Source: Escherichia phage V18 | DNA length: 64,000 nucleotides | Reading direction: 5' to 3' (one strand) | Sequence record: NC_041937.1 | In this document: positions 900 to 57,055 of the stretch, in pieces | How the letters are laid out: every line of letters begins with the position of its first letter | Position numbering within the stretch: the stretch's first letter is position 1 | Translations under genes and position numbers: made by a program | The notes under the pieces: generated by a model | What the model saw: only the letters and a program-made list of their open reading frames with translations | Told to the model about the DNA's origin: nothing | Database searches by the model: none

Positions 900-1363
900 G
901 TGGAAGACGGACGTTTAATGAAGTCTGAACGCAGGCTTATTGTGCAACTGATCCCAGAAACAGCTTGGTATAATAACCTCCGAAACGCTGTGAAGGAGAG
1001 TGAGTGGGATAAGATCCGCAAGAAGTGCTATAGAGAAGCCAACTACACTTGTGAGGTGTGTGGCGGTAAAGGCAGCAAACACCCAGTGGAGTGTCATGAA
1101 CTTTACACTTTCGAAGAGGGAGTGATCCGGCTTGTCGGACTGATAGCGTTGTGCCAGATTGTCACACATCGGTGCATCCTGGGTTAGCAAATATTCGTGG
1201 AAAGTATGCTCAGGCAGTTAATCAGTTGGCTAAGGTGAATAAGATCACCAAAGGTATGGCAGAGGCGTATTACCGAGACTGCTTTGCAGAGTGGCGTGAG
1301 CTTAGTAAAGTTCCAGAGTGGAAGACTGACTTTTCGTGGATAGAGGGTTACCTTGATGGCTAA
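900..1363 (+). CDS. HNH-type zinc-finger endonuclease, reading frame interrupted near 1150-1160
   Basis: ORF 900..1187 carries CEVCGG…HPVECHELY and ends GLIALC; ORF 1151..1363 in the next frame starts PDCHTSVHPG. Joined they give the HNH signature LCPDCH; the break lies in a CC run. Confidence 0.5.
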
Positions 1364-1642
1364 GAGATCTGTAAAAGAGAAATTCGATAAGACAGCTTTT
1401 GTATTCGATACACCTCTGGACGATATCATCAGAGGTATGCAAGCCTTGTATCGGAAGGCTGAATCTGAGCAGTTGTCTGAATCAGAACTTTACTGGCTTG
1501 GTTGGTGGGAGTTAAACCTGCCTAAAGCTGAAAGTTCTTGTCTGAGAACTGTTAAAACGTGCGCCCAAGAAAACGCTGCACTTGGAATCTACCACAAAAG
1601 GAAAAGATCAACAAAAAGCTCTCCAAGAAAGACTAAAAAGTC

Positions 1643-1672
1643 TTGACAAAAGTGTTATTAATCTGATATTAT
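1643..1672 (+). promoter_or_regulatory. sigma70-like promoter
   Basis: TTGACA at 1643-1648, 17-18 bp spacer, ATATTAT at 1666-1672; upstream of 1747..2013. Confidence 0.4.
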
Positions 1673-2005
1673 CGGTCAGATATCTATAAACTAGGAGAAC
1701 TAGATATGCTTAAATTTTTATTGTTGAAGATAAAGATATTGTCCAGTTGTATGCAAACGAGAATCATAAAGGTATGATTCTAAAGAAGGCAAGCAACCTT
1801 CATGAAAACACAATTCAACCTGGTGATGTAATTAAGATCTGTGGTTATATGATACCAGACTCCTTGATGAAAATAACCCACCACTGGGGGTCTAATCCGT
1901 TCCTTTTTGAAAAGTATTGGGATGTTGAGTCACTTATTGCAGAGAGTGATGATGCCTTCCATTGCAGCATCCAACCATCTTGCAGAATAACTAACAGGAG
2001 GGTCT

Positions 2006-3145
2006 TTGAGTAGAGAATATCCACTTATTGAGTCCATAGATTGTCTGGCTGATCTTCTTGAACCTGACGCTATAGTTTATTATGACTTCGATCAGGTTGC
2101 ATATCAAGCTGCAGCAAGTTGTGAAAAAAGGACAATTGAGGTAACACACAAAGCCTCCGGACGTAAGAAGATGTTTAAAACACGAACAGAGTTCTGGGGG
2201 CGGCAGAAGAACACCGTTGGTGGTTGGTTAAAAGCTGAGAATACCAACCGTGAAGCTGCATGTAAAAAGGCTGGCAAGGAGTTTATTCCGTGGACACGAG
2301 AAGATTTCGATGTCTTGGATATCCAAACCCCTGATCCTGTAGAGAACTGCTTGCACACAATTAAGTGTAAAGCCAATGCAGTCCTTAATTATCTCGGTAT
2401 TCCGGAAGATCGGTGCGTGGGGGTACTTGGAGGCACAGGTAATTTCAGACTAGATCTTCCCATGCCGGAAAGATATAAAGCCAACCGTAACAATACTCTT
2501 CGACCACTGCTGCTTGGAGATGCAAGACAGTATCTCCAAAAGCAGTATAATGCTCAAGTGATCAACGGTATCGAGGCTGACGACTGGTTAGCTATCCAGC
2601 AATTTGAAGGTTGGAACCACTACCAAAAAACAGGTAAGTTCAACAAGTTTATTATCTCTATTGATAAGGACCAAAGAACACTACCGGGGCTTGTGTTCGA
2701 TCCCATGCGAAACGATAAGGGAGATTTTGTAAGGGAAACCCCTATGCTGATCGATAACGGTATGGGGAACATCTTCATGAAGCCTAATGGAGAGGTTGGT
2801 GGTTACGGAATGCTGTTCTTCGGATACCAAATGCTGTGTGGTGACTCTGCTGACAACATCAAGCCGTATCAAGGACTTATCGGTAAGGGTAAGTTCGGAG
2901 ATGCCTCAGCATTCTACCTACTGTCTCAGTGCAGCACTCCAAAGGAGATGTGGGTGGCTATTATTGATCAGTACAAGAAGTGGTTCCCGAAAGGTGTTGT
3001 TAAGTATACTGACTTCAATGGTATTGATCGTAGAATTTCCGTAGGTCAATGGATGAGTATAATTTTTGACTGTTTGTATATGAAGCGAACATTCAATGAT
3101 CAAACAAAACTTGTTAACGTTCTTAGAAATGTTGGAGCAATTTGA
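2006..3145 (+). CDS. 5'-3' exonuclease / flap endonuclease (T5 D15 / Pol I 5'-nuclease family)
   Basis: 379 aa; acidic clusters YYDFD, RYKANR, GIEADD, CGDSADNIKPYQGLIGKGKFGDA (helix-hairpin-helix region). Confidence 0.7.
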   Translation: MSREYPLIESIDCLADLLEPDAIVYYDFDQVAYQAAASCEKRTIEVTHKASGRKKMFKTRTEFWGRQKNTVGGWLKAENTNREAACKKAGKEFIPWTREDFDVLDIQTPDPVENCLHTIKCKANAVLNYLGIPEDRCVGVLGGTGNFRLDLPMPERYKANRNNTLRPLLLGDARQYLQKQYNAQVINGIEADDWLAIQQFEGWNHYQKTGKFNKFIISIDKDQRTLPGLVFDPMRNDKGDFVRETPMLIDNGMGNIFMKPNGEVGGYGMLFFGYQMLCGDSADNIKPYQGLIGKGKFGDASAFYLLSQCSTPKEMWVAIIDQYKKWFPKGVVKYTDFNGIDRRISVGQWMSIIFDCLYMKRTFNDQTKLVNVLRNVGAI

Positions 3146-5850: not shown

Positions 5851-6678
5851 TTGGAGGCACTTTGAGCAAGAAAGAGTCCAACGACAAATACTACACAAAC
5901 CCTGAGTATGCAGAATATCTTGTTGGTAAAGTAAAAGATAAGTATGGGAATTGTGCATACGTTGAGCCTTCTGCTGGAAGGGGTTCTTTTTCAAAACTAT
6001 TTTCAGAGATACTGTCGTACGATTTAGTACCAGATCCTGAATTTGAAGGACCAACACCGTGCATTCAGGCAAACTTCTTGGAGGTGCATCCCAAGGCAGA
6101 TGTCTTCATAGGTAACCCACCATTTGGCAAGAATTCATCCTTAGCTTGCAAATTCTTTAACCATTGTGCATCATTGCTAGAGCTTGGAGGGGCTATAGCC
6201 TTCATCTTGCCACGGACATTTGAAAAAATTTTTTTCAAACAAACTGGACATGTCGATGCACCTTGTCTACAGCGAAAGGTGCCCTAAGAATTCGTTTTTA
6301 CTTAATGGCAAACCTTATGACGTGCCATGTGTTTTCCAAATTTGGGAGAAAAAGGCGTGCAATAGGGATCCTGTAGAGATTGGAGAGAATAAGTTATTTT
6401 CTTTTAGCACACCAGATGACTACGACTTCTGTGTAAGACGTGTTGGGTATAATGCTGGAAAAGTATTGGGGGATGATGACCCAAAATCTGAAGAATCAAC
6501 ATATTTCATAAAATCTTTAGTTAACGGTGTTGACAGAGTGTTTGCTGAATGCTATTCTTCTTTTCAAGAAGAAGCAGGTAAGACTGCTGGAATGAAGAGT
6601 ATAGGTAAGAAAGAACTACAATACATTTTGGAGACCAGGTATGATCAAAAGCATAGACTTGACCAAAGAACTTACTGA
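5832..6678 (+). CDS. N6-adenine DNA methyltransferase, frame interrupted near 6220-6290
   Basis: AdoMet motif EPSAGRGSF and catalytic IGNPPFGKN in ORF 5832..6287; continuation (…CVFQIWEKK) in ORF 6220..6678 in another frame; break in an A6T7 homopolymer stretch. Start codon uncertain. Confidence 0.5.
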
Positions 6679-14235: not shown

Positions 14236-16354
14236 AAGTTGTAAAACGGGACGGTAGAGAAGAGTTCTATAACGGAATTAAGGTGATCAAGGCGGCAGAG
14301 TCCGCCTTACTTGAGTCTGGACATACTGAAGAAGAAGCTTACCGGATCGCCTGCGCGGTTAATGAAGTTGTTGCTAACAATCTACCAACCGACCAGTGCA
14401 CGATCTCTGTAAAAAATATCCATATCCTTGTTGAAGATGCTCTTATGGATATGGGTTTAAAATGTGCAGCCAGAGAATACATCCAGTATAGACAGACAAG
14501 AGATAATAACAGAGAGGCAGGTGGAAAACTGCTTGCAGATATTAGTGGCTTCTTGGATCGAACTTGTGATGAATTTACAAAAGAAAACGCAAATAAGCCC
14601 ACTAATCATGTACACACTCATCGTGACCTGCTTGCAGGCATCCTTAGCAAACACCTTGCATCAACACAGATCCTGCCAGACCGTGTTTCAGAAGAGCACA
14701 ATAAAGGCTTCATCCATGTGCATGATCTTGACTACTTGATCAGTCCGTTAACAAACTGTTGTTTGGTAAATTATCCAGATATGTTGGAAAACGGATTCAA
14801 CATTGGCAACGCCCATGTCAGTAAGCCGAAGTCAATAGGGGTTGCAACAACAATCCTTAGCCAAATCTCTAGTGCGGTAGCTAGTGCTCAATATGGTGGT
14901 CAGACTATGAGCCATATTGATCATTATCTGGCACAGTATGCTGAAGCGACCTATGAGAAGAACCTTAAATTTTGCCAGGAACATTGGTTGCCAGATGCTG
15001 AGACTGTTGCAATGCAAATGACAGATAAAGACGTGTTTGACAGCATGCAGACGTTGCTTTATCAGATCAACACACTAACCTCGGTAAACGGTAACCCCTT
15101 TTATCACATTAAGTTTAGGTTTGGACACTTCGGTCTTTGGTAGAATGATTACCAAAAACTACCTGAAAGTCCACAAAATGGGTCTTGGTGAAGAACGTAT
15201 TACACCTGTGTTCCCTAAAGTGCTGTTCTTCCTAGAAGAGGGTGTCAACATGAACCCTGGGGATCCTAACTACGATTTGAAACGATTAGCTCTGGAATGC
15301 TGTGCAGAACGTATCTACCTGACTTCGTATCTGTACCACTAAATAGAAAAGTGACAGGCTCGACAGATGGCAAAGTAACGAGCATGGGATATGTAGAAGT
15401 TTCTTATCGAAATATAGCGACCCTGTAACAGGCGAGGAGAAATACCTTGGCAGATTTAACTTAGGCGTTGTTAGCCTTAACCTGCCAATGATTGCGGCAA
15501 AAGCTAAGACGGAAGGTGTTGATTTCTTTGCAGTTCTTGACGAATACTTGGATCTTGCATACGAGGCTCACCTTGTAAGGGTTAATCGTCTAAAAGGAAC
15601 AAAGGCGGGGCAGAACCCCATCATGTGGTGTGAAGGCGCTCTTGCTCGCCTGGATCCCGAAGAGAGTATTGATAAACTCTTCTATGACGGGTACGCTTCC
15701 ATCAGTATTGGGTATATCGGTGTGTATGAAACCTGTCAGATTTTGGGTAGAGAAGGCGACAAGGCTTTAGCTCTTGGAATCCTTCAGCACATGAGAGATG
15801 CTTGTGAGCGATACAAGAAGGAAAGTAGACTAGCATTTAGCTTGTACGGCACTCCTTCTGAGAGTCTATGCTATAAAGCTGCAACCTGTCTGGATCGTGA
15901 ATATCCGGAAGTGTTGAAGCACGAGCATGAATATCTCACCAACAGTTTCCATCAGCCAGTATGGATAAATAGCTCTCCTTTTGATAAGTGGGAGTATGAG
16001 GAAGGTTTTGCTATGATCTCCTCTGGTGGCAACATCGGATACGTAGAGACACCTAACCTGAAAAACAACCTGGATGCTTTAGAGGCCCTTGTTGACTTCG
16101 GGTATAAACACATTATGTATTTTGGTATTAACCAACCTGTAGATAAATGTCTCAAGTGTGGTTTCTCTGGTGAGTTCAGTGCAACAGCTAAAGGCTTTGT
16201 ATGCCCAGAGTGTGGAAACCATGAAGAGGGAACGATCAGTGTAATTCGACGTGTGTCTGGATACCTTTCCAGTCCTAACTCCCGTCCTTACAATAAAGGT
16301 AAGCAAGCGGAAGTTATCGAGCGAGTTAAGCACTACGGAAGTTGTGGTTGCTGA
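14232..16354 (+). CDS. nrdD: anaerobic ribonucleotide reductase (class III), reading frame broken in three places (possible pseudogene or indel errors)
   Basis: N-terminal ATP cone in frame 0 (14232..15143); middle segment …ITLSLGLDTSVFGRMITK…CCAERIY in frame +1; …PDFVSVPLNRKVTGSTDGKVTSMG in frame 0; C-terminal …CRSFLS…GRFNLGVVSLNLP…RVSGY (glycyl radical) and CLKCG…CPECG in frame +2 to 16354. Fragments sum to about 700 aa. Confidence 0.75.
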
Positions 16355-17567: not shown

Positions 17568-18355
17568 ATGGGTCGAGCTAAAGAAACAAAACGCATGCGT
17601 GATGAAGCTAGAGAGGCTCGCAAATCTGATCGCCTGCGTAAGGCTGCTGAGAAATTTGCTGACGAACGAGAGCACACTGCTCCAGCTCTCCGACCAATGA
17701 ATAAGAAGCAGCAAAAGTATCTTGATTACCTAGGGTCGCGTAAAATTATCATTGTAAACGGAGTGTTTGGGTCTGGTAAAACATTCATGGCATCTGCTAT
17801 GCAGGTGACCTTCTGCGTAAGAATGAAATTGATAAGATCATTGTTGCACGTCCTTACGTTCAGACAGGAAAGACTTCAGGATTTAAACCTGGAAATGCAA
17901 TGCAGAAACTGTGGCCCTATCTTCGAAGCATGATGGACACGATTTGTCGTCGTGTTGGCAAAGGTGCTTTTGCCGCAATGCTGGGAGACGGTCAGAACAG
18001 CCGTATCGAGATTTGTGAAGTTGAAAGCATTCGTGGTCGTAGTTTCGATGAGCGATGCTTTGTCCTGATTGACGAGGCACAGCAAACTAACCCTGAAGAA
18101 ATGTTGTCAATTATCACAAGGATCTCTGATCAAGCCACCCTTGTAATTATGGGTGATAATAGCCAACGTGACATCCCTGGTAAATCTGGCCTTGCATGGG
18201 TGACGGATTTCTTTACTCGTCATCCAGATCCTGAGGTTGGAATGATCAGCTTTGATAGTCCAGACGATGTCGTTCGTTCTGGGTTGGGTCGTCAGATCGC
18301 ACTCAATCTTATTGAGGATCGTGCAAATCATATTTGGACCCCTGTTTCCGAGTAA
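17568..18355 (+). CDS. phoH: PhoH-like ATPase, frame interrupted near 17795-17815
   Basis: Walker A GVFGSGKTFMAS in ORF 17568..17933; the PhoH-like continuation (…KIIVARPYVQTGKTSGF…LIDEAQQT…VIMGD) is in the next frame and joins ORF 17900..18355. Confidence 0.65.
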
Positions 18356-21688: not shown

Positions 21689-22072
21689 CAGGTATGCTTC
21701 TGATTAACTGGGAAGACCTCTATGGGCCTTTATGGGAAAAGAGCATGTATTTAAAATGGTGCGTTAATTTAGGGAGGCCTTCCAGTGTTTCAAGCCATGT
21801 TTATTGAGATGCTATCTGGGGTATTGTTACTGGTAGCCATCTTAGGTGGTGCAGTTCTGATGTATAACTATCTTGAAAAAGGAGACAGCAATGGTAAAAA
21901 ATAAATCTTTAGAGCAGGCTGAAAACCTTCTCCACGAGCTGGTAAAGGAGTGGAAAGTTGAATACTCAGATTTTAATGCACGAGAGGGTGAAGATTATTG
22001 GCCTACGGAGCGCTCAGAGGGCGAATGGTATCAAGATTTTATAGAGTGGTTATATCAGACGTGCGATGAGGG

Positions 22073-22947: not shown

Positions 22948-23484
22948 TCTGGATATCCTATGCTGATGGCACCATGCTGTATACTGCAGGTACCAGATAT
23001 GAAGTTCAGGAGAACGATAAAAAATTTATCGTAAAAACATTTGACAAGGACGACAACCTTTTGCTAGAATTGACTTACAAGGTTGGAGAGGTATCCAATA
23101 TCCAATTGGATTGTGGTCATAAAGATAACCCACTCAAAAAACCTGGAATAGGCAAGGCTTCAGAAGAACGTTTGTCTCGTATTGCAGAAAGCGTTTCTAC
23201 ACAAAAATCTAAGAAGGGGACTAGAAAATGAAAAACTTACGTTTTAACACTGGCGCAATGGAAGAAGCAATATTCTAAACCAGGCGGGAGGGTTTTATGA
23301 AGCACTATTGCCTGTCTGGTAGAATGGGTACAGATTGTGATTGGGTTTTCTTAAAACTTGTCAGCATTCGAGAGTTCATCCCAGAGGAAGAGCAAGAAAG
23401 CGAGCTGATGTCATGGATCAACCATTACGGTAACACTTTTCGGCATGTTAAGGTAGAAGAGTTGCCAAGCGAGGCTGATTGACT

Positions 23485-23574
23485 ATGATTGCATCAATAT
23501 TAACGTTTATGGGTGGCGTGGCATTCGGATTCATTGTTTGCCTGTTTATAGTGATTATGTCTATGCGAGGCTGA
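23485..23574 (+). CDS. 29-aa hydrophobic peptide (putative)
   Basis: ATG at 23485; MIASILTFMGGVAFGFIVCLFIVIMSMRG; fills the gap between 23297..23482 and 23578..23949. Confidence 0.25.
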   Translation: MIASILTFMGGVAFGFIVCLFIVIMSMRG

Positions 23575-23945
23575 ATTATGAAACTTTTTGAGTGGTTTAA
23601 AAAGTTTAAATATAAAGCTGTAGCCATCGTGCCGTGGTCAATTCAGTGGGTTGATGAAGGTGGTCTACCAATACCTGGTGACAAAGATACTGGGTACTGG
23701 ATTATGATGGAGAACGGGTTTGGAAAGCGAAAGTATACGTGCACAAACTCTACTCGATCTGCCACTAACTGGTCTAAATTCTACTGGGGAGCCAACGAGT
23801 GGGGAAGATACGCCACCAAATCAATGGCACTTATTGGTATAGCAGAGTACATTGCAGCCAGAGATAGGGTTGGAGACACTTATTACTATACTGCGGACGA
23901 TATTCGTAACAGTGTTTACGTCCCACAACCACCTGATGGAGACCG

Positions 23946-25945: not shown

Positions 25946-26276
25946 TCCTGCTTGGATTAGCATACTTCCTCGATAAGGAAGATTTGTAATTATTTGTGGG
26001 AAAGGAATCCCAATCTCTTACCAGAGGTGATACTATATGATTGTTTATTTTAAAACTTCAGGTGGATACCCTGATTCTCAAAGCTTGATCGGAAAAACGT
26101 GCACAGCATACTCACCTCTTGATGAGGAGGTAAGCGATATTCTACGAAATATGTATCGGATTGACCCCCAAGAAGCTTTGATCAAAACCTTGTATTTGTC
26201 AAGGGCTCAGATATGAAGTCTTTGGGAGCATTCCCTGAAGCAGATGATGATGCCGTTTATTCGTTCATGACTCCTT

Positions 26277-29093: not shown

Positions 29094-29121
29094 TTTAAAA
29101 CAACATAAGGAGACTCTTACT

Positions 29122-29427: not shown

Positions 29428-29433
29428 TGACAA

Positions 29434-29460: not shown

Positions 29461-29482
29461 CTATCTATGAAGGAGATTTGAG

Positions 29483-33790: not shown

Positions 33791-34945
33791 GGTGTTTTTA
33801 CCTCTTAGTTAATTTTCTTACAACTTCCCTTCAAAAAAGAATATAGCAAAACTGCCGATCCCTGTCAACCAAGGATGGCATAATTTTTATGTGATCAAGG
33901 GGCTTTATTGCCCCTGACCATGTAACTTGTTGTATTATTTGTTATTCATCCAGTTTTCCCAAGCTGCCTGATAATCTGCCTCACTGCGGCGGATCTCTTC
34001 TTGCTCTTCAAGCCGGATCTCTTCTTCCAGGTACCCCAAGATATCGGCTTTTTTGGTCTGGCGTAACATCCAATCATCTTTTTTACGGGTAAAGATCTTA
34101 TATGCTTTCTCGCAAACCTCTTTTTTGCTACCTTTTTGGACTTTAAGAACTTTGTAGGCCATGTACTGAACTAGTTTGAGCTGATCAAGACGTTTCATGA
34201 TGTTTACCTCTTTATGAGGTTCTGGTTTGGTGTGGGCCTTTTGGCCCGTGTCATTATCTTATTACTTACGGCGGCAAAATTCAAGTGTTTTTAATTGATA
34301 ATCTTCCTCAGCTTGGAGTACAACCGCTCGATCATTTCGTTGGCATTGGTGAAGCCATACCCTTGAGCGAACTCATCCGCGCCACCTTCGTGATCATGTT
34401 CTGCGTTCATCGCTTCCACAAAATGGAATTCAAGATTATTGAGGTAAGGGCTTGATGTTCCGTCCTCTTTTTCGATGAGATCCCAGATAGCATTAAAACG
34501 TGATTCAACTTCTTGATTAATCCAGCTTGACATAATGTTTTCCTCTCTTCTGGTTGTTGTGTGGGCACTTTTGCCCCTTCAAGATAAATAATATCCCACC
34601 ACCTGGCAGATGTCAACGGTTTTTATAGTTTTTATATAACAGGCACCCCCGGTGATTGTCTCCCCCCGTCGCCAGGTGCCACCCGTGAAACAAGTATAAC
34701 AAAAAACAGGACAAAAACAAGCCCTGTTTTGTAGATATAAGGATTATATTTTTTCGCCTATGTAGTCCGGCCTATTCTTTTCGGTCATACGCTTAAGCAT
34801 TTTTTGCAAAGAGTTAATATATAACACCAGATCGCTGACTACCAGGACAACATTAATCAGCACATACCTAACCATAAAGGGAAAGATCGCCAACATTGCC
34901 GCCACGATCCCCATGGTAATAATTACCTTTCTCATGGTTAGCGGT

Positions 34946-35221
34946 TTACGTAGCTTTACCGTTTACGGTTATCGGCAGATCCTCCAGGTCTGGATCTTCT
35001 TTAAGGTCGCGAGCAAGTTCACCGCACCGAACGCCCTCGAATCCGTAGTACTCTGTCGTGCCATCCTGGAAAGTTTTAGCGGCAAGGCATAGGCGATAAG
35101 TAACACCGATTTGATTGACGGCATGGATATCAGTTAGATCTACCTCTTTTGCCAGCTCTTTGGCCATTACAGGCGCATTAAGTCCAACAACCAGGGCAAC
35201 CACTGCGATCATCTTTTTCAT
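34946..35221 (-). CDS. small secreted protein (signal peptide)
   Basis: 91 aa; MKKMIAVVALVVGLNAPVMA N-terminal signal-like segment. Confidence 0.4.
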   Translation of the reverse strand: MKKMIAVVALVVGLNAPVMAKELAKEVDLTDIHAVNQIGVTYRLCLAAKTFQDGTTEYYGFEGVRCGELARDLKEDPDLEDLPITVNGKAT

Positions 35222-35537
35222 TGTATCTATCCTCTTTCTGCTACGTTTAAGGCGGCGGCAACCGCCTGTTTATGCTTTGTTGGTTAATTTTCGGGTATCG
35301 GTATAAATTAAACTATGCTGTACGCTCAACTATAACAACGGCTTGAGGGATCTCACCTTCCACCACTATCAAGGCTTTTTTCTGCGTAATGGATATCTTT
35401 ACCCGCTTCAGCGTGGCGGTAAAGTCTTTCATTTCGTCACGTGGTGTTTTAGTGCAATACCAGATCTCAGGCTTGCCGATCTGTAAGTTGCGTAAAAATT
35501 CCGTTTTGCCTGTTTTGTTAGTGATCATTTGCCAACC

Positions 35538-35642
35538 TCACCCGATACCGTTGGAAGACAAGATCACATTAGCCATGGTTGCAATCAGGCCAATACCCAG
35601 GGCAATAACCAGGATCACCGCATCAATTAATTTCTGTTTCAT
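35538..35642 (-). CDS. 34-aa hydrophobic peptide (putative)
   Basis: ATG (minus) at 35642; MKQKLIDAVILVIALGIGLIATMANVILSSNGIG. Confidence 0.25.
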   Translation of the reverse strand: MKQKLIDAVILVIALGIGLIATMANVILSSNGIG

Positions 35643-36326
35643 GGTGTTTATCCTCTTCCTGTTGCGTTTAATGGGGCGCTTGTCTCCCCTACTTATTATG
35701 TTTTAATCTTCTTGTTCCAGGTGGCGGACCATTCCACCGCCTTATGTATTATGCTTTGTAAGATGGTTGTTTGTTTTCAAACTATTTTAACGATAATCAT
35801 CGTACGCTTTATTAACCTGGCGAATATAACATTCAAAAGCCAGATCAATAGATTTATATTCACGGATATACTCACCATAGGAAACCACATACATTTCTAT
35901 AGCTTCCTCATATGCGAGGAGAGTAGAATCCAAGCCTACGATCTCAGTCTTTGCAATAATAGCCATGATTTTTATCCTCTTTGTGGTTGGTGGGCTTGCC
36001 CCTTTGATTTATATACTACAGTCTTATATGGTCATGTCAACTATTTTCAAAAAATTTTTCTGCCGTGATATTCTTCCCGGTGGGGTTCGCCACCTTCAAA
36101 ATTTTATCATGCACTGGACGCCCAAAAGAATAAGCGCCGTACGCAGTAAGCCAATAATCCCCGTCAGGCTGTACTATTACCGCCGCATATGGTACGCCTT
36201 TTTCGTTTTTGCTGACAAAATAGATCACATTGCCATTAATAGCCTCAGCGCGTTTAATTTGTTCCATCATGATGATTCACCTATCTTTATTTTTAATAGT
36301 TTCAGGCCTTTTTGGCCCCGCCAGGT

Positions 36327-36611
36327 TTATTTATTGATAGCGTGCAACGGGAAAGGTACGCCAGGTTGATAGATAACTTTTACAACCTCATCGGGGCAAA
36401 AGAAATTACAAAATTCACCCCGATAAGCTTCATCTTCTTTTAATTCTTCATCAACATACTCAAAAAAGTAGTCGATGCTTGGATAATCCTGACCGGGATT
36501 ATAGTCAACCATTGTCAGGACTAGTTCAAGATCGTTGCGTAGGATATGCATACCTGCTTTTAAGTATTTTGCTTCCATTTCTACTACATCGCCAACGGTA
36601 ACAATAGCCAT
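36327..36611 (-). CDS. hypothetical protein
   Basis: 94 aa; a 17-nt poly-C/G tract lies 37 nt upstream of its start codon. Confidence 0.4.
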   Translation of the reverse strand: MAIVTVGDVVEMEAKYLKAGMHILRNDLELVLTMVDYNPGQDYPSIDYFFEYVDEELKEDEAYRGEFCNFFCPDEVVKVIYQPGVPFPLHAINK

Positions 36612-36647
36612 GATTTTAACTCCTATCTATCCGGTTAATGATTGGAG

Positions 36648-36664
36648 CCCCCCCCCCCCCCCCC
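36648..36664. repeat. homopolymeric C17 (G17 on minus strand) tract
   Basis: 17 consecutive C at 36648-36664 in the 5' region of gene 36327..36611. Confidence 0.8.
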
Positions 36665-36844
36665 GACACCCTTTATTATCCATATTGTAGGGCTTGATGC
36701 AAGTACTTCTTTAAAAATTTTTTAAGCGCCTTGGGGGCCGCTGTAGCGCTAAAATAATAAAGGCCATGCAACCGCATAGCTTTATGTGATTATATCGCTG
36801 CAGGCCCTACCATGGGCCTTATTTTGCATCATTTGCTGGAATTA

Positions 36845-37162
36845 TTAAGAGAAAACATCGTTCACAATAGCGATCACAATGCCGCCCACCTTGTCACGGT
36901 CAACAATGCACAAATCACCATAGATCATGTGGTAGTCTGGATGATCTTTCACGGAATAGTCAATGAGTGTCTTCTTATCGTCCAGCTTACTAACTTCCAT
37001 TCTCATAAAGATATGAGAATCATCAAAGGCATTATTCCGAAAAGTCATAACCTGACCGCCAGGGCACCCGGTGATTTCCACCTCCACGCCGTCTACGATC
37101 TGACCATCAAAGAAATAAAGATTATTAGCGGGTATAAACATGATCATTGCTCCTTTTTGCAC
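36845..37162 (-). CDS. hypothetical protein
   Basis: 105-aa ORF. Confidence 0.35.
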   Translation of the reverse strand: MQKGAMIMFIPANNLYFFDGQIVDGVEVEITGCPGGQVMTFRNNAFDDSHIFMRMEVSKLDDKKTLIDYSVKDHPDYHMIYGDLCIVDRDKVGGIVIAIVNDVFS

Positions 37163-37185
37163 TGATTATTTTAACAGGGTTTAAA

Positions 37186-37230
37186 TTTACTTTATTGATG
37201 GCCCTGGAGTCAAGGCCATCTAAAAATAAA
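37186..37230 (-). promoter_or_regulatory. repeated promoter/operator-like element, copy 1
   Basis: Inverted repeat GATGGCC…GGCCATC (37197-37203 / 37214-37220); minus-strand reading gives TTGACT-N18-TAAATT; upstream of 36845..37162. Confidence 0.4.
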
Positions 37231-37910
37231 TTTTACAGGCCTACAATCTCTTTATTCGTTTTACTGCTGCCTCAGCGCCTTGAGGGTAAAAATTATGGTA
37301 ACCAATCACGCGGGTAATACTGATCGCCGCCTGATGATCTTCATAATACCCCTTGAATATTTCTTGACCATCAACCAGCACAGCAATTTTTTCTTCTTTT
37401 TTGAAGTTAATAACGCGGATATTGTTGCTCATTTTGTTTCTCCTTTTGGAACTTTGTCTGTGTGGTGGGGAGTGTCTCCCCGTTGATTGTTATTATCCAT
37501 ATTCAGGACCGGATTGCAACACCCAGGGAGAAAAAATTTGAAAAGTTAGGCCCCAGGGATCGGGGCCGTTATCAGGCACGTACAGCGATAAAATACATCC
37601 CTACGCCTAACAATATTTCAAGGGCGATGATCTCCAGCCATACCATAACACGGCGCGCCTTATCGGTGCTGGGCTTATCCTTGGGTGTCATCGTCTCCCC
37701 CTTTCCTCCTGTTAGTAGTGACGTGGTTTGTAATGGTCCCCAGGAGTATTATCACCACGCACATTACAAGAAAAATTATCTCTGTCGTTGTTCGATCCAT
37801 TGTTATAAAACTCCTTAAGATCAGGCCTGAAAATAAAGCTTTCGTTATTGAATCCATCCCGCCAGGCGGCTGGCTTCAAATCTTCACTAAATGGATTAAT
37901 TAACGTGGTA

Positions 37911-38315
37911 TTATTTAAACGGCTGGCCCACATATTTTCTATTCCTCTCAAATAAGCGATCCGCCTCAGTTAAACAAATCTCATGGGCGTGATCTCTGGT
38001 TTTAGCTTCATCGAAAACCTGTTGTGCAAGGCTGCAACGTAGGGAGACTGGAAGATCACTATAATAGGCGTTGACAAACGTTTGAGCGTCGTACAGGTCT
38101 GAAAATACTTTACCCTTTCTATTATTCCCCTTGTCAACAATTGCAAGGATAACCAATACAATAGTTGCAACCACCCCCAGGAAAATAGATATAATAAACC
38201 ATAAAAAGGCGGATCTTCCCATCTTGCCAGCGATCCAGGCGTTAAACAAGGCAACCAATACAGCCAAAATAATAAATTCCATTCTATGTACCTCTTTTAC
38301 AGTTCTGATTAACAA
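37911..38315 (-). CDS. membrane protein
   Basis: 134 aa; two hydrophobic helices (ILAVLVALFNAWIA, FLWFIISIFLGVVATIVLVILAIV). Confidence 0.4.
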   Translation of the reverse strand: MLIRTVKEVHRMEFIILAVLVALFNAWIAGKMGRSAFLWFIISIFLGVVATIVLVILAIVDKGNNRKGKVFSDLYDAQTFVNAYYSDLPVSLRCSLAQQVFDEAKTRDHAHEICLTEADRLFERNRKYVGQPFK

Positions 38316-39043
38316 TAAGGCGGCAAATATGCCGCCTGTTACCTGATTAAAAATTATCGCCGTAAAGCTTTCCGCTTTCTGCCCATACCACCACGCGAGG
38401 CATACTATCCCACACGTCTTGTTTTAGATTAACGCGTGCAATTCTTCGGTGGTGCTCATACCGGGCACGGGCTGATTGTATACTGCAAAACGACCGCCTG
38501 CATAATCATAGGCCAGGGTTAAATCACACTGGATCATCTTTTTGATCATGGCATTAAGCATGGCGTTAGCCGCATATTGATCACGTTTTAAAGGCAACTC
38601 TTTGATTAGTTTGCGATAGTTTTCGATATGGTCGCACACTGTTTCACGAGGAAGATCTTTCATATCCTCGCGAAAGGTAACCAGGTTAAACATAACGGTG
38701 TCAATAGCTTTGGTAGTGTTTTTCATGATGTTATCCTCTTTGTTTTGTGTGGGGCAAATCATCGCCCCCTTGAGTTTTAATATAGCAGGTTTTTAGGTTA
38801 TTGCAACACTTTATTTATGAAAAAGTCATCTCACCATATTCATCGACATCAAACCGCCAATCATTGGCCTCGATAAGGCCGATCAGGTTTTCTGCGGTGA
38901 ACTGTTCTAGATAGGCCTCCTCCAGGTCTACGTAAACCTTGCGGGATAGCTCCCGTACCGTCTCGGTGATCAGTTCTTCCAGTCTTCCACTTTGTTTTCT
39001 TGTTTGGCGGTCAGATCTAGCCAAGTGGTATCAATGTACCCGC

Positions 39044-39436
39044 TTACAGTGTTTTCATGGCTGTAATGGCTGTACTTGTCGCGTTCAACACTGGCTGATA
39101 ACTCGCATCGTGCATTGTGCCGAACAAGTGACGAATTGATCGGAACTTGGTCAGGGCCCTTACTTTACGCAAAAATTTTTCTAAATCCACGTTTTCAGCA
39201 CTGATTGAAGCGCCGTCACCCTGGCACCAAAAGCCGGACCAATGTACTTCGGTATCTTCAAGGCCGTACTCTGGAAAGATATATTCTTTGTAGTGTTCAA
39301 TTACACTTTCTGCAAAAAAGTCATCCCCGCTGCGTTCTTCTCTTTCGCGGACCATTTCAATGGCTTTTTCTTTTTGTTCGTCGGTCAGCACGTCGAAAGA
39401 TAAATTGCAACCTGTAGTAATGTTAACGGTAGTCAT
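39044..39436 (-). CDS. hypothetical protein
   Basis: 130 aa; conserved 5'-leader hairpin CGGGAAGTTTTCCCG at 39466-39480 and promoter-like TTGACA-N16-TATACT (minus) at about 39493-39522. Confidence 0.4.
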   Translation of the reverse strand: MTTVNITTGCNLSFDVLTDEQKEKAIEMVREREERSGDDFFAESVIEHYKEYIFPEYGLEDTEVHWSGFWCQGDGASISAENVDLEKFLRKVRALTKFRSIRHLFGTMHDASYQPVLNATSTAITAMKTL

Positions 39437-40625
39437 GATGTTTTCTCCTATTTTCTTTGTTAGTGGCGGGAAGTTTTCCCGTTTACGTGTTTAAGTATAC
39501 TTATCAAGATTTACTTGTCAACACTATTTTTTAAATTATTGTGGCGCAAAATGTTTAAAATCTCCTCAACGTCATCAACACGGCGGCAATTTTTAAACGC
39601 TACCAATTGCCCCATGATTTTAATCACTGGGCGGCCTTGCCAGTGCCCCTGGAGAAAGCGCGCCTTGACTTTATCGGTGGAACTATCACGCCACCAAATA
39701 GCCTTGTTGTTGCAGTAGTAAAAATTATTCAGGACAACATCAACTTTATCAAAATTTTTTAATTTACGCATGGCGTTTACTCCTTTCTCTCTTTGATGTG
39801 GTTAGTATAGCTAACCTGTTGACGATGTCAAGGTTAAATAAAAAACTGTCAATGATATTTTTAACGCCATAAAACGGCCCTAAGCGATGTTTTCAGGTTA
39901 AAGGGGGGGCGATTGCATAGGTGGGGCCTTTTTGGCGCTTACAGGGCCAACCAGGGGCGCTATTCGTAGGATAGAAATAAAAAGCCCCGCACAATGGCGG
40001 GGCGTTGGTTGTTATTTGTCTTTATGGCGGTATCGTTCTGCCTGTCGTTCACGTTCCAAAAGTAGGCCGGGCAATTTACGATCATAATGATTGCGCCAGA
40101 TCTTCCCAAACCTTTTTGGCTTATTCAGTTTATTGTTACGCTGGCGGCGTTCTGGCAGCTCTTCGGAATCATGAGGGCGCTTTACAATTTTCTCGAAATT
40201 AATTTTCATATATTCCCCCCTTGCTAACTTCAATATTGGCCTGAATAGCCGATACGGCGCTTTATAACTTCCTGATCTGTGTGGTCATATCCCCAAAAGT
40301 CTACGATTTTTGCGCCTCCAGCCTTTAGGCGGTATAGTGTTTCTTGCATCTTGTAAGCTGGGATCGGTCGCGGTGTTACCTGGTCGCCTCTCTCATCCTT
40401 GTACTTGATAATGTAGTCTTCGTTGTCGTTGAATGCCCAAAATGGGTATTCTGTGAGCGCGTTGCTATCTTTTTCGTTTTTAGATTGGATCTTGTTTACA
40501 ATTAAAGCCGTAGCAATAGCGCCAATGATAAAACTAGCCCCGCTAATCATGTACTTTCTCCTTTCATGGTGTTAATAAATTATCTTTATAGATGGCCCTG
40601 CAACCAGGACCACCGAAAAAACAGC

Positions 40626-40871
40626 TTATTTGACGATACCGACAAAACAGATCCCGCCTTCCCCTATATAGGCAATATCGGTAATTTTATAATTTGTCAA
40701 GATCTGCTTATTTAGTTCATTAATAAAATCGGTCATTGCGTTGGTGTAGTTGTCTTCCGTGTCTAAGGCATAATCCCAGGTGTACACCTTTTTACGTCCG
40801 AAGCCTTTTACCATGATACGGGCGCTTTTGGTGTTGGTAGGGGCATAATATTTGGTGATTAGTGCTGCCAT
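40626..40871 (-). CDS. hypothetical protein
   Basis: 81 aa; same RBS/start context as 36327..36611 (ATAGGAGTTAAAAnCATGGC). Confidence 0.4.
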   Translation of the reverse strand: MAALITKYYAPTNTKSARIMVKGFGRKKVYTWDYALDTEDNYTNAMTDFINELNKQILTNYKITDIAYIGEGGICFVGIVK

Positions 40872-40912
40872 GGTTTTAACTCCTATGCATTAGTTCAGTG
40901 TTAACAGTATAA

Positions 40913-40962
40913 AGTTTACTTTATTGATGGCCCTGGTGTCAAGGCCATCTAAAAATAAGCTT
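40913..40962 (-). promoter_or_regulatory. repeated promoter/operator-like element, copy 2
   Basis: Near-identical 50 bp to 41533-41582; GATGGCC/GGCCATC inverted repeat bracketing a TTGACA on the minus strand. Confidence 0.4.
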
Positions 40963-41301
40963 ACTCGTTTTCTTCCAGCTCCGCAAGCTCTTCTTTTGCT
41001 TCTTCCAACCCTGTCTGTAATTCCTGGTATTCTTCATCGTCCTCAATATCCAGCTGTCGATGTAGTCGCTAAATCCGCAGCGGTAAGCGATAGGATCTAG
41101 CTCCTTGAGGATACGCGACGGAAGAAAAGAAATGTTTCCGATCATAATTTCGCCGTAGATCTCGTCTAACCATTCATCATAGTTTTCGTCGTACTTGTCC
41201 TCGTCGATTTCAAAGTTATCGATCTTATTCTCAAGGTCTGCGATCTGTTTTTTCAGCGCGGCGATCTGCATGGCTTTTTCTGCGGCGGTCATAGTAGTCA
41301 T
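40939..41301 (-). CDS. hypothetical coiled-coil/acidic protein (C-terminal part possibly out of frame)
   Basis: 120 aa; N-terminal KKQIADLENKIDNFEIDEDKYDENYDEW; leader hairpin GGGAAGTTTTCCCG at 41328-41341. Confidence 0.35.
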   Translation of the reverse strand: MTTMTAAEKAMQIAALKKQIADLENKIDNFEIDEDKYDENYDEWLDEIYGEIMIGNISFLPSRILKELDPIAYRCGFSDYIDSWILRTMKNTRNYRQGWKKQKKSLRSWKKTSKLIFRWP

Positions 41302-43900: not shown

Positions 43901-45798
43901 ATTTTAGAAATCCCCCTTACACTTGATATGCCAGGAATTTTCAAGTATCAGCTGTTTTTGTTTTTAGGTTTGTACATGCGCAGAGGTATGGTCGTAACAG
44001 TCCATCTCCCCAGCCCTTCCCAGTTCCAGTTGTAGGCATGGTACCCGGTTATGCATGCACTGCTAGAGTGGTCATAGGCATAAGAGAACGCTATACGCAC
44101 CAAATGGAACCAGTCTTTCCACGGTTGTGGTCCGTAAGCTTTTCTCCAACACCGACACAAACTAAATGTCTCAAGAATAGGCAGGATAACAAATCCATAC
44201 ACCGCCACCAGAATAGCCAGCGCAATGATTGTCAGGAATACATACCCTGCAGTTGAAACGATGATCTCTGTCATTTGTCGTCCCCTTTCTTACGGATATA
44301 GATGTGAGAGCCTGCCTGTATATAAATTTCTCGACCATCTTCTGCAAAGATATGAAATACACGATCACCTTCATACTCGATACGTGATATCTTCATAATG
44401 GTCTTTCCACCTGGGATGCGGATCTCGTCCCCCACAGCGATGTTCCATGCAGATTTAAGCTTAAACATCTGCACCCTCCTTTGGGAGCTCTAACTCTGGC
44501 ATAGCCATATACGCCACAACAGGGTTGTAATCAAAGTAGAAATGACCGTTAATTATCCCAGTTTTGTGAGCATAGTCACCAGATCCTGCAAGAACAACCT
44601 CGCAAACTCCGAAATCCACCTTGCCATTCTCATCTGCCATGGCTACAATATACTTTCCTAGAGGCATGTTTTTAACGCCGTCTACAAATGTCCACCCTTT
44701 GTTCATACTTTATCTCCTGCATTCTCTTAAGGTAACCAGTAAACAATCTCGCCTTTCAGCTTCATGTCGTTTCCAACATAAATTTGCCAGCCATCCATCT
44801 TAGCAGCTGCAGGCCCAAAGTCATCCGCACCCCTTACCTCTTTCCAGGTCCCGTAGTCAGGTTGCCAGATGTAAAATCCACCATCTTTATCCCATGCTCC
44901 GTACACTACGTTTAACAGGTTTCCCATTGCAACAATGGTGGGCCGTGGGAATAATACATCTACAGATGCGCCACAATTTCTGGTATCTTTTAAGTTGCAA
45001 TCCCAAAAGATGTCTGCCAGTGTGGCGGCGATAGCTTTACGTCTTTCCAATGTTACCATATCATACTCACTTTGTTAATAAGTTCTAAAACTTTCTGTCT
45101 TACTTTGTCAAGGTCTGTGGATTCAAAAACTGTACGGTATCCCCAACTTTGCCCATAGGAGTGACTGCAATCCCCGTAGCACCATTGCTCAATTTGATAG
45201 TATTCAAGGAACGGGTGCTGTCTAACTATGATACCATCTCGGTTAAAAATTACCATAATACATCGCTCTCTGTTAGTTTATGCGTATATTATACACTGCA
45301 GTCTTCAGATGTCAACCTCTTACAGATTGCTCCAGTACAATCGGCATTTACATTTTGGGCAATGAGGTTCTTTTATGTAATAACCGTCAGTCTTTGGAAC
45401 ACTTTTTGGTGCAGTTTTAAGATTGTACCTGGTAAAACATCGGAAGCAGGTTACCTCTCCCACCTGTTGATCGTTGATCCACTCACCAGAGTAAAGTTCT
45501 TTCTTGTTTCTCATAATTCTCTCCCAAATCATCTGCAATCTTATACCAAAATCTCCAGCCAGAAAGCACACGGGAACACTTTGAGGATTGAATCTTTACT
45601 TGGCTCGGAAGTTCTTTTCCGTATGGTAGGTAGAAATACCCTCCTGCAGATTCGAATATAGCTCCTTCGGTTGTATCTACCACAGCAAGAATTAAGATTT
45701 TAGTCTCCACAGTGCTCTCCTCTCTTAGTTGTTGTGGAAACTATATCACCTCAGAAGATGGTCGTCAACACTTTTAACCTTTCATGATTGAAAAGTAT

Positions 45799-49036: not shown

Positions 49037-50427
49037 TATTTGTCTCCTTGTTCTTCGTTAGTGTTTGCCGTGTGTGCAAACCCTGCCTGAATTAATTTGT
49101 CCTGAACTTGAGCCAACAGGCCCATTGCAAAACTTGTGGTCCCAGAGAGAGCCATCAGCATATCTCGTTGTTGAGCTACCCAACCTAAGGCATAGTCCAA
49201 ACGACGATATTTTTCTTCTTCGCGCAGAGCCTGAAATAATTGTTCAGCCTCCGGTTGTTGTGTGAGCTCCTGAAGTCTTCCCATGAAAGAAGAAAGCACT
49301 AGCAAAAGAGACACTTGATCTTTACTTAACCCTAAGAAAAATTCTTGAGGTTGTTCTTGCTCGTTCATTGCAACCGACGTTTGATCGTTCATTTGTTCCA
49401 TTATGGAATCTCCGATTTTATTTGAACAACATAGAAGGAGACACTATTTTAGCATCCCCTTCTGCAAATTACAATAGGTATTTGTTAGCCAATCACTTCA
49501 AAAGTTCCCCAATTCCCGTCCAGCAGGCAGGTGATCGGATCCCCATCGTCGTCAAAGATTTCAAAGTTTTCAGCATCCAGGATGTGACCCTCGAACACGA
49601 TACTTTCGTCTCCACCACCAGAAATAACAGCGTATTCCTTACCTTGAGTCAAGTTTTGACACCCTTTGCCACCAAAACCTACTTCAACACAACGTACTTT
49701 CTGTCCTGCGCGAGCAACTGCTTCAGTCATCTTAAGGTCTCCTGATATTAATCGTCAAGTTCAAAATAGATTTTAACAGCTTCATCAAAGATTGGAATCC
49801 CGATGTTGTTGATAAGCTGCCAAACTACCATATCTTTACCTGGATCTGGGAGAATGTCAACCTTTCTCCATGCGCTGTATACCCAGTTCGGACCGCCTTC
49901 TGCACTAACTGGCAGATTTTCACCAGCTTCTTGTAGATACTTATACAGCAAAAGATATTCTGGATACTCTAGAACACTGTCCTCTGTAGTATATAGCAGT
50001 TCACGGTATACTTTTAAGAACCCTGCTGGGGTAATGTTTTCAGTCTTCATTTGCCGCTTCTCCTGCATTCATCAGGTCTGCCATAGCGTCACCCACGAAG
50101 AGGACAACCACATCGTTGACAGCGTCAGCATCATCTTTGTTGACGTTGCTGAATTTAGGACACACAGCAATGATCATATAGACACCGTTACCAACCTGAA
50201 CTGTCCGTGTGGTGCACATCATGGCGGTATTTGTGCCTTCTTTGAAGGCGAAGCTTGAAGACGCTCCTCTAAAGTGTTACCGGTAGATTTCAGAAGCGCC
50301 AGCTCGTCCAAGGCATAGATGATATCTCCGGAAGTTAGTGTTGCCTTGCCATCAGACACCATAATCACTCCATCAGCACCGTCAAGCTTAGAGGCTTCAA
50401 AGATATCAATATCCCAAATATTTTTCA

Positions 50428-50760
50428 TTACGCTTCCTCGTCGTCTAAGTAATCATCAAGAGAGGTGAAGATTTCACCGAAGTATTCTAAGATTTCTAGC
50501 TCACGTGTGGTGCAGCAAACATAATCTCCTTGGTCGTCCTTAATAGTGGCCTCTTTACCCAGAACATCTACTTCAAATTCATCGTTCAGCAGGACGGCCC
50601 CTGTGTAAACTTTGTCAGCTGTGCAGTCCCGAAAAGCAGAGTCCTTTTCCAGATAGTCTGGCTTAACCTTGGCTTTAATTCGTTGATATTGTTTGGTCAT
50701 TGCTGTGGTCTCCTTTCGTTTTGATAGGGCCATTATATTAGGCCCCATCACTGTTGTCAA
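50428..50760 (-). CDS. small acidic protein, tandem paralog 1
   Basis: 110 aa; KPDYLEKDSAFRDCTADKVYTGA… vs KPECVANDRAFKDCTVGAIYEA… in 50764..51018. Confidence 0.4.
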   Translation of the reverse strand: MTTVMGPNIMALSKRKETTAMTKQYQRIKAKVKPDYLEKDSAFRDCTADKVYTGAVLLNDEFEVDVLGKEATIKDDQGDYVCCTTRELEILEYFGEIFTSLDDYLDDEEA

Positions 50761-55003: not shown

Positions 55004-55061
55004 ATACAGTTCTCCTTAAAGGGGAGGCGGTTGTACTACCCCTCCCACTCTTTGTTAAACA

Positions 55062-57055
55062 TTAAAAAGGCGTTTCATCATCCTCAAAACCAGGGACCGG
55101 GTCAGAGGATGGATCATCGTACTGGAGGTCTTCCTGCGTGTCAACAGGCTTAACAGTAGGAGTTACAACCTTATCAGCCACAACCTTGCCCATAGGTGTT
55201 TCTACAACTGCATGCTCCTGATCCTCAAACATAGCCTGAGGTCTCCAAACAACCTCCCCGCCTTCTCCGTCTGTAAACATTTGCATTTCTTTGTCCCAGT
55301 ACCAATTACTGGCATCATGGAACTTACCTGTGTGCGGGTCCATAACCAAAGTGTCAGCAATACCTAGAGTTTTTGCTGGACGGTTTTTAAGACCTACCAG
55401 ACGGACACGTCCACGAGAACGATCCACCATTTCTTCGGCCTCGACACCTATGACTACCCAACTCAACTGTTCAAGCCCAGCCGATCCTCGCAAATTCTCT
55501 TTTCGCACAGGATACCAGAAAGGTAACGGGTTACCATCCTTGTCCTTAGGAGGCACAATCTCTGTACGTTTGAGGTGAGCGATCACCAAGATAAACACAT
55601 TAAACTGCTTACAAAACGCAGCCAGTTGGGTCATAGCCATGTCCAGTTCTTTTCGCTCATCCTTAACATTAAGCCCTGAAATTACCATGGACAGGTGATC
55701 CAGCACAATATAACGACAATGGTACAGGCAAACCATTTGCTTAAGCTTGGTAATCAACTCGTCCACCGGAATAGACCCGAAATGTTTGAACACTTTGATT
55801 TTTCCAGCTTTTGCCCATGATTGGTGAATCTCTGCGTGTTCTTGATCAGTTAAAAACTGGCTAGGATCTTCAACAAACTCTTTAACATCAAACCCTAACT
55901 GGTTTGCATACAAGGAGTTAATTGCTTCCTCTGGGTCCTCCTCAAGATGGATCATGCATAGACGATCATCCTCTTCATAGTCATCAGCCTTCGGGCATGT
56001 CGGGTCCATTAGGTATCTTGCAATACAGTGTTCCAGTTTTTTAGCCACGGTTGTTTTACCGCCCCCTGATGGCCCTGTAAGCATTACGAGTGTCCCTTTG
56101 TGCAAGCCTTTTAGCATTTTTTGCAGTTTTGGGAACTCTGCGCTGATATCTACCCCGTTGGAAGTCTTTTTCCGCAAAGACTCGATAGAGAAGTCTTCTA
56201 AATCCGACACAGCATCAGGCACATATTTAACAGGATGCCGGAACATGTTGACAATATCTTCCAGCTTTTTAGCCTTCAGCATGTCACGGATATCTTTTAC
56301 ACCGTCAGGATCGTTTACCTCACCGGGGTATTCTACGTGGTAAACGTTATCAGCCATCAAAAATGCTGCAATATTGTGCGTGGCCTCGACACCTTTAATG
56401 ACGTGTTTTTGCTTCTCTACCTCGTTAGCTGCATCGTTATCCATTGCCAGCACAACTGTTCCATAGCTACGGATAAACTTCTCATTGTTTGCAAAAGTAT
56501 CTACTGCGTTTGCACATCCACAGTTAATTCCAACAAAAGGTAGGCAAGGTTTTCCTGCCAGATCACCACCGTTGATAACTGCGTCGATCCCGTCCTGGAC
56601 CTCTTTAGCCCACTGCTTCACCTTTGCCGGGGCTTTAGCGTTGGTGAGAATCCCTTTTACTTGTATCTGATATGCAGCCTGCCATGCTGCAATAACATCA
56701 CCTTCTCCCTCACAAACGTTAATCTGCTTACGGTTGTTGGAAGATGCACACAGCTTTTGACCAAACATCTGGGAGTTGGCCTTTACTATGCTACTACAGA
56801 CCAGTGCCCTTTCTGCTCTTTCGGCTTAGACCAGTCACGCTTTTTGAAACCAGACAGATTTCCGTAGCGGTCGTAATATGGGAAATATGTTGCAGTGACT
56901 GTCACACCGTCTTCTTGGGACAATGCTGATCGCACACCAAAATATTGTGCAGCCATCAGACCGATATTTTGTTGTGGGACAGGGACAATTTTAGTATTTT
57001 CTAAAACAGTCTCTACAGTTTCAACCTCTTTTTCATCACGATAGTCTCGTTTCAT
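55062..57055 (-). CDS. primase-helicase (TOPRIM primase domain + DnaB-family helicase), N-terminal part in a different frame
   Basis: ORF 55062..56768: TOPRIM EGEGD and LAMDNDAAN; Walker A LTGPSGGGKTT; Walker B-like FILVIAHL. A separate 89-aa ORF 56786..57055 immediately upstream ends 18 nt before it in another frame; I did not identify a primase motif in it, so the join is positional. Confidence 0.65.

Follow-up and report, generated by a model that had tools for sequence, protein, structure and literature searches.

The subject of this study is the reading frames in a 64,000-nt stretch of Escherichia phage V18 (NC_041937.1), referred to below as the window, which corresponds to the half of an rV5-like E. 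coli myovirus (genus Vequintavirus) that carries the early and replication genes. Mapping of annotated coding sequences (CDS) from related phages revealed that 24 of the 134 reference CDS that map onto the window are broken. We consider it probable that these frame breaks are assembly or consensus artefacts of draft quality, i.e. defects of the record and not of the virus, in the sequence of a genuine rV5-like phage. The lesions exist, are unique to the window, are biased towards deletion, are associated with runs, have left no evolutionary trace and coexist with structural anomalies; from these properties we infer a technical cause, together with whatever technology or pipeline may lie behind it.

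More than 100 GenBank phages match each third of the window with 95–98% identity and in the same gene order, and since so many independent relatives are available, every claimed frame break could be tested against them. No near-identical record was present among these matching GenBank phages. The window contains, in order, the genes for endolysin, exonucleases, thymidylate synthase, nrdA/B, nrdD/G, PhoH and a ClpP-like protease, followed by a long block of small early genes and by DNA polymerase, primase/helicase, methyltransferases, a helicase and rIIB. The alphabet of the window is restricted to A, C, G and T, and at the gathering threshold neither tRNA nor Rfam families were found in it. 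Intact rV5-like phages (JohannBauhin, rV5_ev147, bov10K2, EmilHeitz and rV5_ev168) have gene order and content in common with the window over 63.5 kb at 95–99% nucleotide identity. Compared with them, the window has the 24 broken genes, lacks at least four segments of 141–805 nt, and loses collinearity at position 63529, after which the endolysin region reappears.

For each lesion site, 3–10 independent genomes were compared with the window. IMG/VR gave only 3–4 close relatives, and unannotated GenBank genomes were added as references. Controls were a reference-versus-reference mapping (163 CDS) and 12 control genomes. Unique indels were counted strictly, i.e. all genomes covering a site had to agree against the query.

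In the comparison with the control genomes, 24 of 125 CDS were broken in the window. The reference-versus-reference mapping yielded 6 broken CDS out of 163, with frameshifts confined to small hypothetical genes, and the 12 control genomes had 0–7 broken CDS each, many of them compensated indel pairs without stops. Of the 24 broken genes, three vary in control genomes as well and one owes its break to a nonsense substitution, which leaves about 20 genes broken by window-unique deletions of 1–2 nt. We counted 35 window-unique indel clusters in 62.75 kb, 30 of which are not multiples of three, compared with 0–11 per comparable span in the controls. Per unique coding substitution, the window has ~0.08 frame-breaking lesions, versus 0.004–0.02 in those control genomes that have any broken CDS. 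Every lesion was absent from all 3–10 genomes covering its site; the relatives there have one continuous frame or exons that join in frame. Broken genes carry one frame-breaking lesion each, with the exception of nrdD, the primase/helicase gene and the gene at 38815–39436 (two deletions).

Searches outside the comparison set gave no second example. The k-mer spanning the PhoH lesion had no exact match in GTDB genomes or JGI metagenomes, and k-mers of a scar and a recoded patch in nrdD (the scar at its first insert site, see below) and of the end junction had none in IMG/VR. A second copy of the window, sought by BLAST against E. coli genomes and plasmids and by exact-protein look-ups of lesion-specific and unique open reading frames (ORFs), was not found.

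An earlier note, made from the sequence alone, had claimed breaks in at least five genes (nrdD, the HNH endonuclease, the adenine methyltransferase, phoH and, probably, the primase-helicase). The references encode each of these as a single intact ORF, which confirms all five. Its three possible further cases (26277–26636, 40939..41301 and 50040–50428) are likewise genuine breaks, each caused by a 1-nt deletion (at 26440, 41052 and 50253, respectively). The tally itself was too low. The comparison with independent genomes, which the note had named as a check, placed each lesion in the window only, and the warning that small-ORF boundaries are less reliable was justified. The small lesions are distributed as follows:

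918..1363, plus strand: HNH homing endonuclease gene, in two pieces owing to the loss of 1 nt at 1153 (CCC to CC).
1706..2013, plus strand: gene for a 102-aa protein (phrog_14449), broken at codon 3–4 by a 1-nt deletion at 1711 (AAAA to AAA).
5862..6678, plus strand: putative N6-adenine methyltransferase gene, net loss of 2 nt at 6229–6235.
17568..18355, plus strand: PhoH-like ATPase gene, an isolated A lost at 17797 (TGC[A]TATGC), outside any homopolymer.
26037..26635, plus strand: two adjacent small genes with one 1-nt deletion each, at 26176 and 26440.
28424..30116, plus strand: small genes with 1-nt deletions at 28505 and 30102, both CCC to CC.
34262..41295, minus strand: nine small early genes with deletions of 1–2 nt (34326, 34951, 37253, 38428, 38982, 39105, 40250 and 41052) or a nonsense substitution.
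45067..45710, minus strand: two small genes, with lesions at 45071 (−2, TTGTTG to TTTG) and 45614 (T5 to T4).
50040..50428, minus strand: gene for a 129-aa protein, split in two by the loss of 1 nt at 50253 (CC to C).

The HNH gene is an intact CDS of 447 nt in four relatives, and the deletion at 1153 is confined to the window when compared with 6/6 genomes. Its product matched phrog_5200 (E = 2e-72) and four other HNH PHROGs, but no Pfam family at E ≤ 0.001. The methyltransferase gene is an intact 819-nt CDS in relatives, and again the lesion is window-only versus 6/6 genomes. At this site, base-level alignment gives AAAAAATATTTTTTG for the reference and AAAAAATTTTTTT for the window; the resulting A6T7 tract arises by the loss of an isolated A and a G and thus is not a miscounted homopolymer. 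The name adenine methyltransferase rests on GenBank annotation: there was no Pfam match, the best PHROG is of unknown function, and the match to the DNA methyltransferase family phrog_799 was weak (E = 3e-13) and covered residues 3–118 only. The PhoH gene (PF02562, E = 4e-47 on the reference orthologue) is 98.1% identical to the reference apart from its one deletion, and position 17797 is intact in 7/7 genomes, including an independent metagenome scaffold from ENA. PhoH is split in this scaffold too, and we considered it as an independent parallel; we rejected it, because the split there is caused by a run of N and the site of the window's lesion is intact. Of the breaks named in the earlier note, those in the PhoH and methyltransferase genes are not homopolymer miscounts. 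The small minus-strand gene at 36842–37141 has an in-frame stop caused by a substitution and is the sole broken gene of that kind.

The spectrum of the small lesions differs from that in the controls. Deletions outnumber insertions ~25:5 in the window, compared with 15:28 in the pooled controls (Fisher p = 4e-5), and isolated bases account for just 3 of 21 single-base deletions, versus 52% expected (p = 3e-4). The contracted runs are short, mostly 2–4 bases. Longer runs nearly always equal the reference (218/224 five-base and 56/58 six-base runs); the three discordant runs of at least six bases are all intergenic, and the references themselves differ in at least one of these (42687). An error rate that rises with run length, as expected of a homopolymer-type artefact, was thus not observed. 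The earlier note had seen in several of the breaks the homopolymer signature of long reads and had proposed a comparison of indel and homopolymer positions. The association of deletions with runs is borne out by this comparison, but it concerns runs of 2–4 bases and leaves long homopolymers almost untouched. Along gene length, the lesions are spread evenly (KS p = 0.41), which makes most of them mid-gene knock-outs. By eye and without an enrichment test, no consistent motif common to the deletion sites was found (Dam, Dcm and AGCC-like methylation-site errors were considered). Stripping of ambiguous bases from the source was rejected as an explanation: only 2 of ~24 deleted positions are polymorphic among the references, no more than expected by chance.

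Two genes stand out because some of their breaks coincide with insertion sites of mobile elements:

14445..16354, plus strand: nrdD, anaerobic ribonucleotide reductase, with lesions at 15092/15093 (site of insert 1, −2), 15317 (−1) and 15389–15391 (site of insert 2, +2).
55062..57137, minus strand: DNA primase/helicase, frameshifted at about codon 116 by the loss of 1 nt at 56790 (CC to C) and without its ATG, which is lost at 57134–57137.

The intact reference NrdD carries PF13597 (E = 8e-161) and the glycyl-radical domain PF01228. The window nrdD is 96.8% identical to the reference at the DNA level and is split into three frames. In many relatives the gene is naturally interrupted. A first insert follows ...GTAAACGGT; it measures 257 nt in nom, bov10K2 and AlexBoehm and is larger and contains an ORF in phita32. 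AlexBoehm annotates nrdD as a two-piece joined CDS and phita32 as three pieces. A second insert of ~760 nt with an HNH ORF lies directly 5' of the catalytic S-M-G-C-R-S-F motif in 18 phages. Removal of the inserts is predicted to join the exons in frame (slashes mark the insert boundaries): GGT/TAAC...ACCG/CAAACC would give V-N-G-Q-T-P-F and GGGT/AAAC...AATG/TGTAGA would give S-M-G-C-R-S-F. At both sites the predicted 5' exon ends in U and the insert in G, as is the case for group I introns. The group I intron model RF00028 matched both insert sites in three relatives with 29–35 bits (E = 5e-6 to 5e-4), which is below its gathering score of 50, and gave no hit in the window at the gathering threshold. 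Judged from these features, nrdD of Vequintavirus is a hot spot at which two group-I-intron-like inserts occur, either with an HNH ORF or without one. A group I intron in phage nrdD has its classical case in nrdD/sunY of T4.

On both sides of each insert site the window matches insert-bearing alleles, and downstream of the second site the match extends to a patch that is recoded synonymously; the inserts themselves are absent. Site 1 reads GGTAACC instead of GGT/CAAACC (−2), and site 2 reads GGGATATGTAG instead of GGGT/TGTAG (+2). In the insert-bearing alleles, the stretch around the catalytic cysteine is recoded synonymously from GGT TGC CGG AGT TTT CTT AGC to GGT TGT AGA AGT TTC TTA TCG, which looks like a tract of co-conversion or endonuclease resistance.

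A similar situation is found at the primase/helicase gene (phrog_239, E = 2e-159; DnaB_C domain at residues 332–589). Its closest allele, from EmilHeitz (98.4%), is accompanied by a free-standing homing-endonuclease gene of ~670 nt between a Dcm-like methyltransferase gene and the primase gene. The window lacks this gene, and the junction in its place removes the ATG of the primase. The window resembles the large E. coli phages that carry mobile group I introns and free-standing homing-endonuclease genes (as in nrdD and DNA polymerase of Vequintavirus) in its flanks, but it is insert-free at all three sites, with −2, +2 and a lost ATG instead of a clean junction or an empty site. A natural insert-free allele would be in frame, and these three near-exact but scarred absences need another cause. 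The earlier note was right that nrdD and the primase-helicase are broken, and had overlooked that three of these breaks are scars at insertion sites and not run contractions. An assembly derived from RNA or cDNA with the introns spliced out was rejected, because the exon junctions are inexact and out of frame and the third missing element is a free-standing gene.

A further insertion site, in the DNA polymerase gene (52579/52580), contains inserts of 276 or 842 nt in three relatives; for WalterGehring, which has the 842-nt insert, a joined CDS and a homing endonuclease are annotated. In contrast to the scarred sites in nrdD and upstream of the primase gene, this site is empty and clean in the window, and its flanks are unlike the sole insert-bearing allele compared (D#).

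In addition to the small lesions, the window lacks larger segments and ends in a junction that does not fit the relatives:

21726..21727: junction of a window-unique 805-nt deletion, an in-frame fusion of a 'glycosidase' gene (codon 11) with a small gene (codon 25).
23251..23768: two window-unique deletions, 144 nt at 23251/23252 and ~209 nt at 23762–23768, the latter with the 5-nt filler CACTA.
34808: window-unique deletion of 141 nt.
63529..63996: non-collinear junction, consisting of the 3' end of rIIA, the 2-nt filler GA and the endolysin gene from codon 2.

All four missing segments belong to the block of small early genes and were present in every reference compared. The 805-, 144- and ~209-nt segments were found in 30/30 records sampled across the 113 that cover the region, including rV5_ev168, which is locally 99.1% identical. 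The junctions have no microhomology and some contain filler bases, and microhomology-mediated deletion is not supported for this reason. The deletion at 23762–23768 creates a fused ORF (23578–23949) from two unrelated genes; collapse of paralogues as its source was rejected, as the two proteins share no similarity. We found no window-unique insertions of at least 15 nt; at every scale, nearly all differences between the window and its relatives are losses. At 21717–21736, the 805-nt deletion is preceded by CCTCTATGGG and followed by CCTTTATGGG, two 10-nt stretches that agree in nine of ten positions. Both copies are kept side by side, unlike the outcome of a repeat-mediated deletion.

Collinearity with all relatives ends at 63529, within the last 83 nt of rIIA. 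The filler is followed by 465 bp that are 100% identical to positions 144–608 of the window, with divergence in the final four bases. Among the 109 matching phage records, the junction at 63529–63532 does not occur, and a direct transition from rIIA to endolysin would skip ~70 kb of structural genes in the relatives. We do not find the terminal junction credible as a feature of the genome, and it is likely a contig boundary, a concatenation or a misjoin.

A defective record would account for these observations if its substitutions are accurate and bases and segments were dropped from it. The ~25 single-base contractions of short runs may be residual indel errors from error-prone reads or a weak consensus step. 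The missing segments, including the two intron-like inserts of nrdD and the homing-endonuclease gene upstream of the primase, would have been lost with small scars or filler at the junctions. Such scars would be expected if contigs or reads were stitched together or placed on a template lacking the inserts, or if variable or mobile segments interrupted the assembly. Finally, a false join or contig concatenation at 63529–63532 could yield the exact 465-bp duplicate of the endolysin region. Missing segments with scarred junctions point to stitching or a template-guided consensus in addition to simple read error. Infestation of these genomes by homing endonucleases is documented (PMC8594841) and has probably caused breaks in the assembly. 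Phage genes split by short indels that were left uncorrected are a well-documented artefact; such indels are reported to stand out most in the coding regions of phage assemblies and to disappear on short-read polishing (PMC10438801). Draft phage assemblies of this kind, whether long-read-only, from low-coverage flow chemistry or stitched from contigs, resemble the window in their single-base indels that split conserved genes into two or three calls, their accurate substitutions, the deletion bias and the link to runs. They differ from it in that nearly all homopolymers of at least five bases are correct in the window, large conserved genes are hit less than expected and whole segments are missing. 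The technical-error alternative of the earlier note is therefore the best explanation, while the long-read homopolymer signature that it gave as the reason fits only in part.

The same note had named decay of the element as the other possibility. An old phage-derived element undergoing pseudogenisation could contain many broken genes and three lesions in nrdD, but the substitutions argue against such a history. In 18 broken genes, frame-corrected codon differences from the nearest reference were synonymous versus non-synonymous at 88:21 upstream of the first lesion and 87:17 downstream of it. Selection was thus not relaxed after the lesions, which means that they are not real or are extremely recent. 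Across all genes, window-unique substitutions were 201:94 (32% non-synonymous), as in intact relatives (13–38% in the controls, a range that leaves out ev147 with its only 12 unique substitutions). They look like ordinary evolution under purifying selection, with nothing added since the frames broke. Moreover, the lesions are common to no relative, most broken genes have a single frame-breaking lesion, the primase/helicase gene is struck twice, and the window is 95–99% identical to viable phages isolated from plaques. As codon changes are as synonymous downstream as upstream, we reject evolutionary pseudogenisation, to which we assign a very small probability. Programmed recoding, in which ribosomal frameshifting rescues the genes or their parts work as separate subunits, might be suggested by the natural interruption of nrdD in many relatives and by gp4 of T7, a primase-helicase that can be made in two forms. 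The lesions vary from site to site, occur in the window only and have no motif common to any two sites, and relatives have continuous genes or exons joining in frame at these positions; we reject this explanation too and regard its probability as next to negligible.

A more serious competitor is that the lesions are real and very recent, as in a laboratory-passaged, mutagenised or otherwise defective variant that accumulated run contractions and larger deletions in dispensable genes and lost its inserts imprecisely. Several observations weigh against a technical origin and favour this possibility. Genes of at least 900 nt (19.5 kb in total) contain 2 lesions versus 9.3 expected (p = 0.0015, with a threshold chosen post hoc), and the lesions are regionally uneven (p = 0.015), with fewer in the third that contains the replication genes; depletion in large conserved genes would fit selection on real mutations and not a uniform error process. 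In the laboratory, a phage could plausibly do without most of the broken genes (HNH, methyltransferase, nrdD, PhoH and small early genes). Nanopore, 454 and Ion Torrent reads classically fail at long homopolymers, and in the window almost all of these are correct. Three of the four large deletions keep or create an open frame (chance ~0.1), and three breaks lie at intron or homing-endonuclease insertion sites, which are biologically meaningful places. Clean substitutions and the absence of downstream decay are also compatible with recent events. On the other hand, the primase/helicase gene lacks its start codon and, in addition, is shifted out of frame at about codon 116. Three independent near-exact excisions of mobile inserts, each ending within ~2 nt of the boundaries of the insert, would hardly arise by random deletion, and one would not expect illegitimate recombination, in E. 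coli or its phages, to leave junctions with filler and without microhomology. About 20 null mutations would have to be simultaneously present, none common to any relative, and they are spread evenly along gene length. The rIIA-to-endolysin junction would mean either that ~70 kb of structural genes are gone or that the genome holds a duplication too large for packaging. Given the intact long homopolymers, the depletion in large genes, the meaningful sites and the in-frame large deletions, we keep real lesions as a minority possibility, and defects of the record as the probable explanation.

Several other features of the window were noted. A region of ~2.3 kb without conserved ORFs (~31013–33370) separates the plus- and minus-strand blocks; the cumulative GC skew turns over there, and natural indel variation is frequent among the relatives. 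It is probably a divergent control or origin region. Intergenic homopolymers include 12 A at 32479–32490 and 17 C at 36648–36664, the latter exceeding two references by 3–4 bases. A family of 51-nt intergenic repeats with an internal hairpin (GATGGCCCTGG...CAAGGCCATC) occurs between small minus-strand early genes at 37184, 40578, 40913 and 41533 and probably represents a terminator or promoter cassette. At 7118–7133, a window-unique 8-nt tandem duplication (AATGACAC x2) at the start of a small gene doubles the ATG, and the second copy leaves the gene intact. The references also include the GenBank MG0656xx records, which are rV5-like Vequintavirus genomes without annotation and bear the label 'UNVERIFIED: Campylobacter phage'. 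In this series C12 has a frameshifted DnaQ-like exonuclease gene and D# an excess of unique insertions, which suggests that these records also have problems with indel quality.

Our findings matter mainly for data quality. ORF boundaries, gene counts and calls of 'novel small genes' or 'split genes' are unreliable in this window, the frames of the ~20 broken genes need correction before annotation, and the last 470 bases and the junction at 63529–63532 should not be taken as genome structure. The combination of unique lesions per unique substitution, the ratio of deletions to insertions, the synonymous fraction downstream of lesions and reference-versus-reference controls provides a reusable diagnostic to distinguish artefacts from decay. 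We consider it rather unlikely that the lineage purged the two group-I-intron-like inserts of nrdD and the homing-endonuclease gene by near-exact but imprecise excision, in addition to single-base run contractions in dispensable genes throughout the genome. If this were true, either mobile elements would be lost, with scars left behind, by a previously undescribed route, or a viable phage would tolerate ~20 knock-outs including a start-less and split primase/helicase. Should the lesions be real, the loss of three inserts with retention of insert-type flanks would inform how phages shed introns and homing endonucleases.

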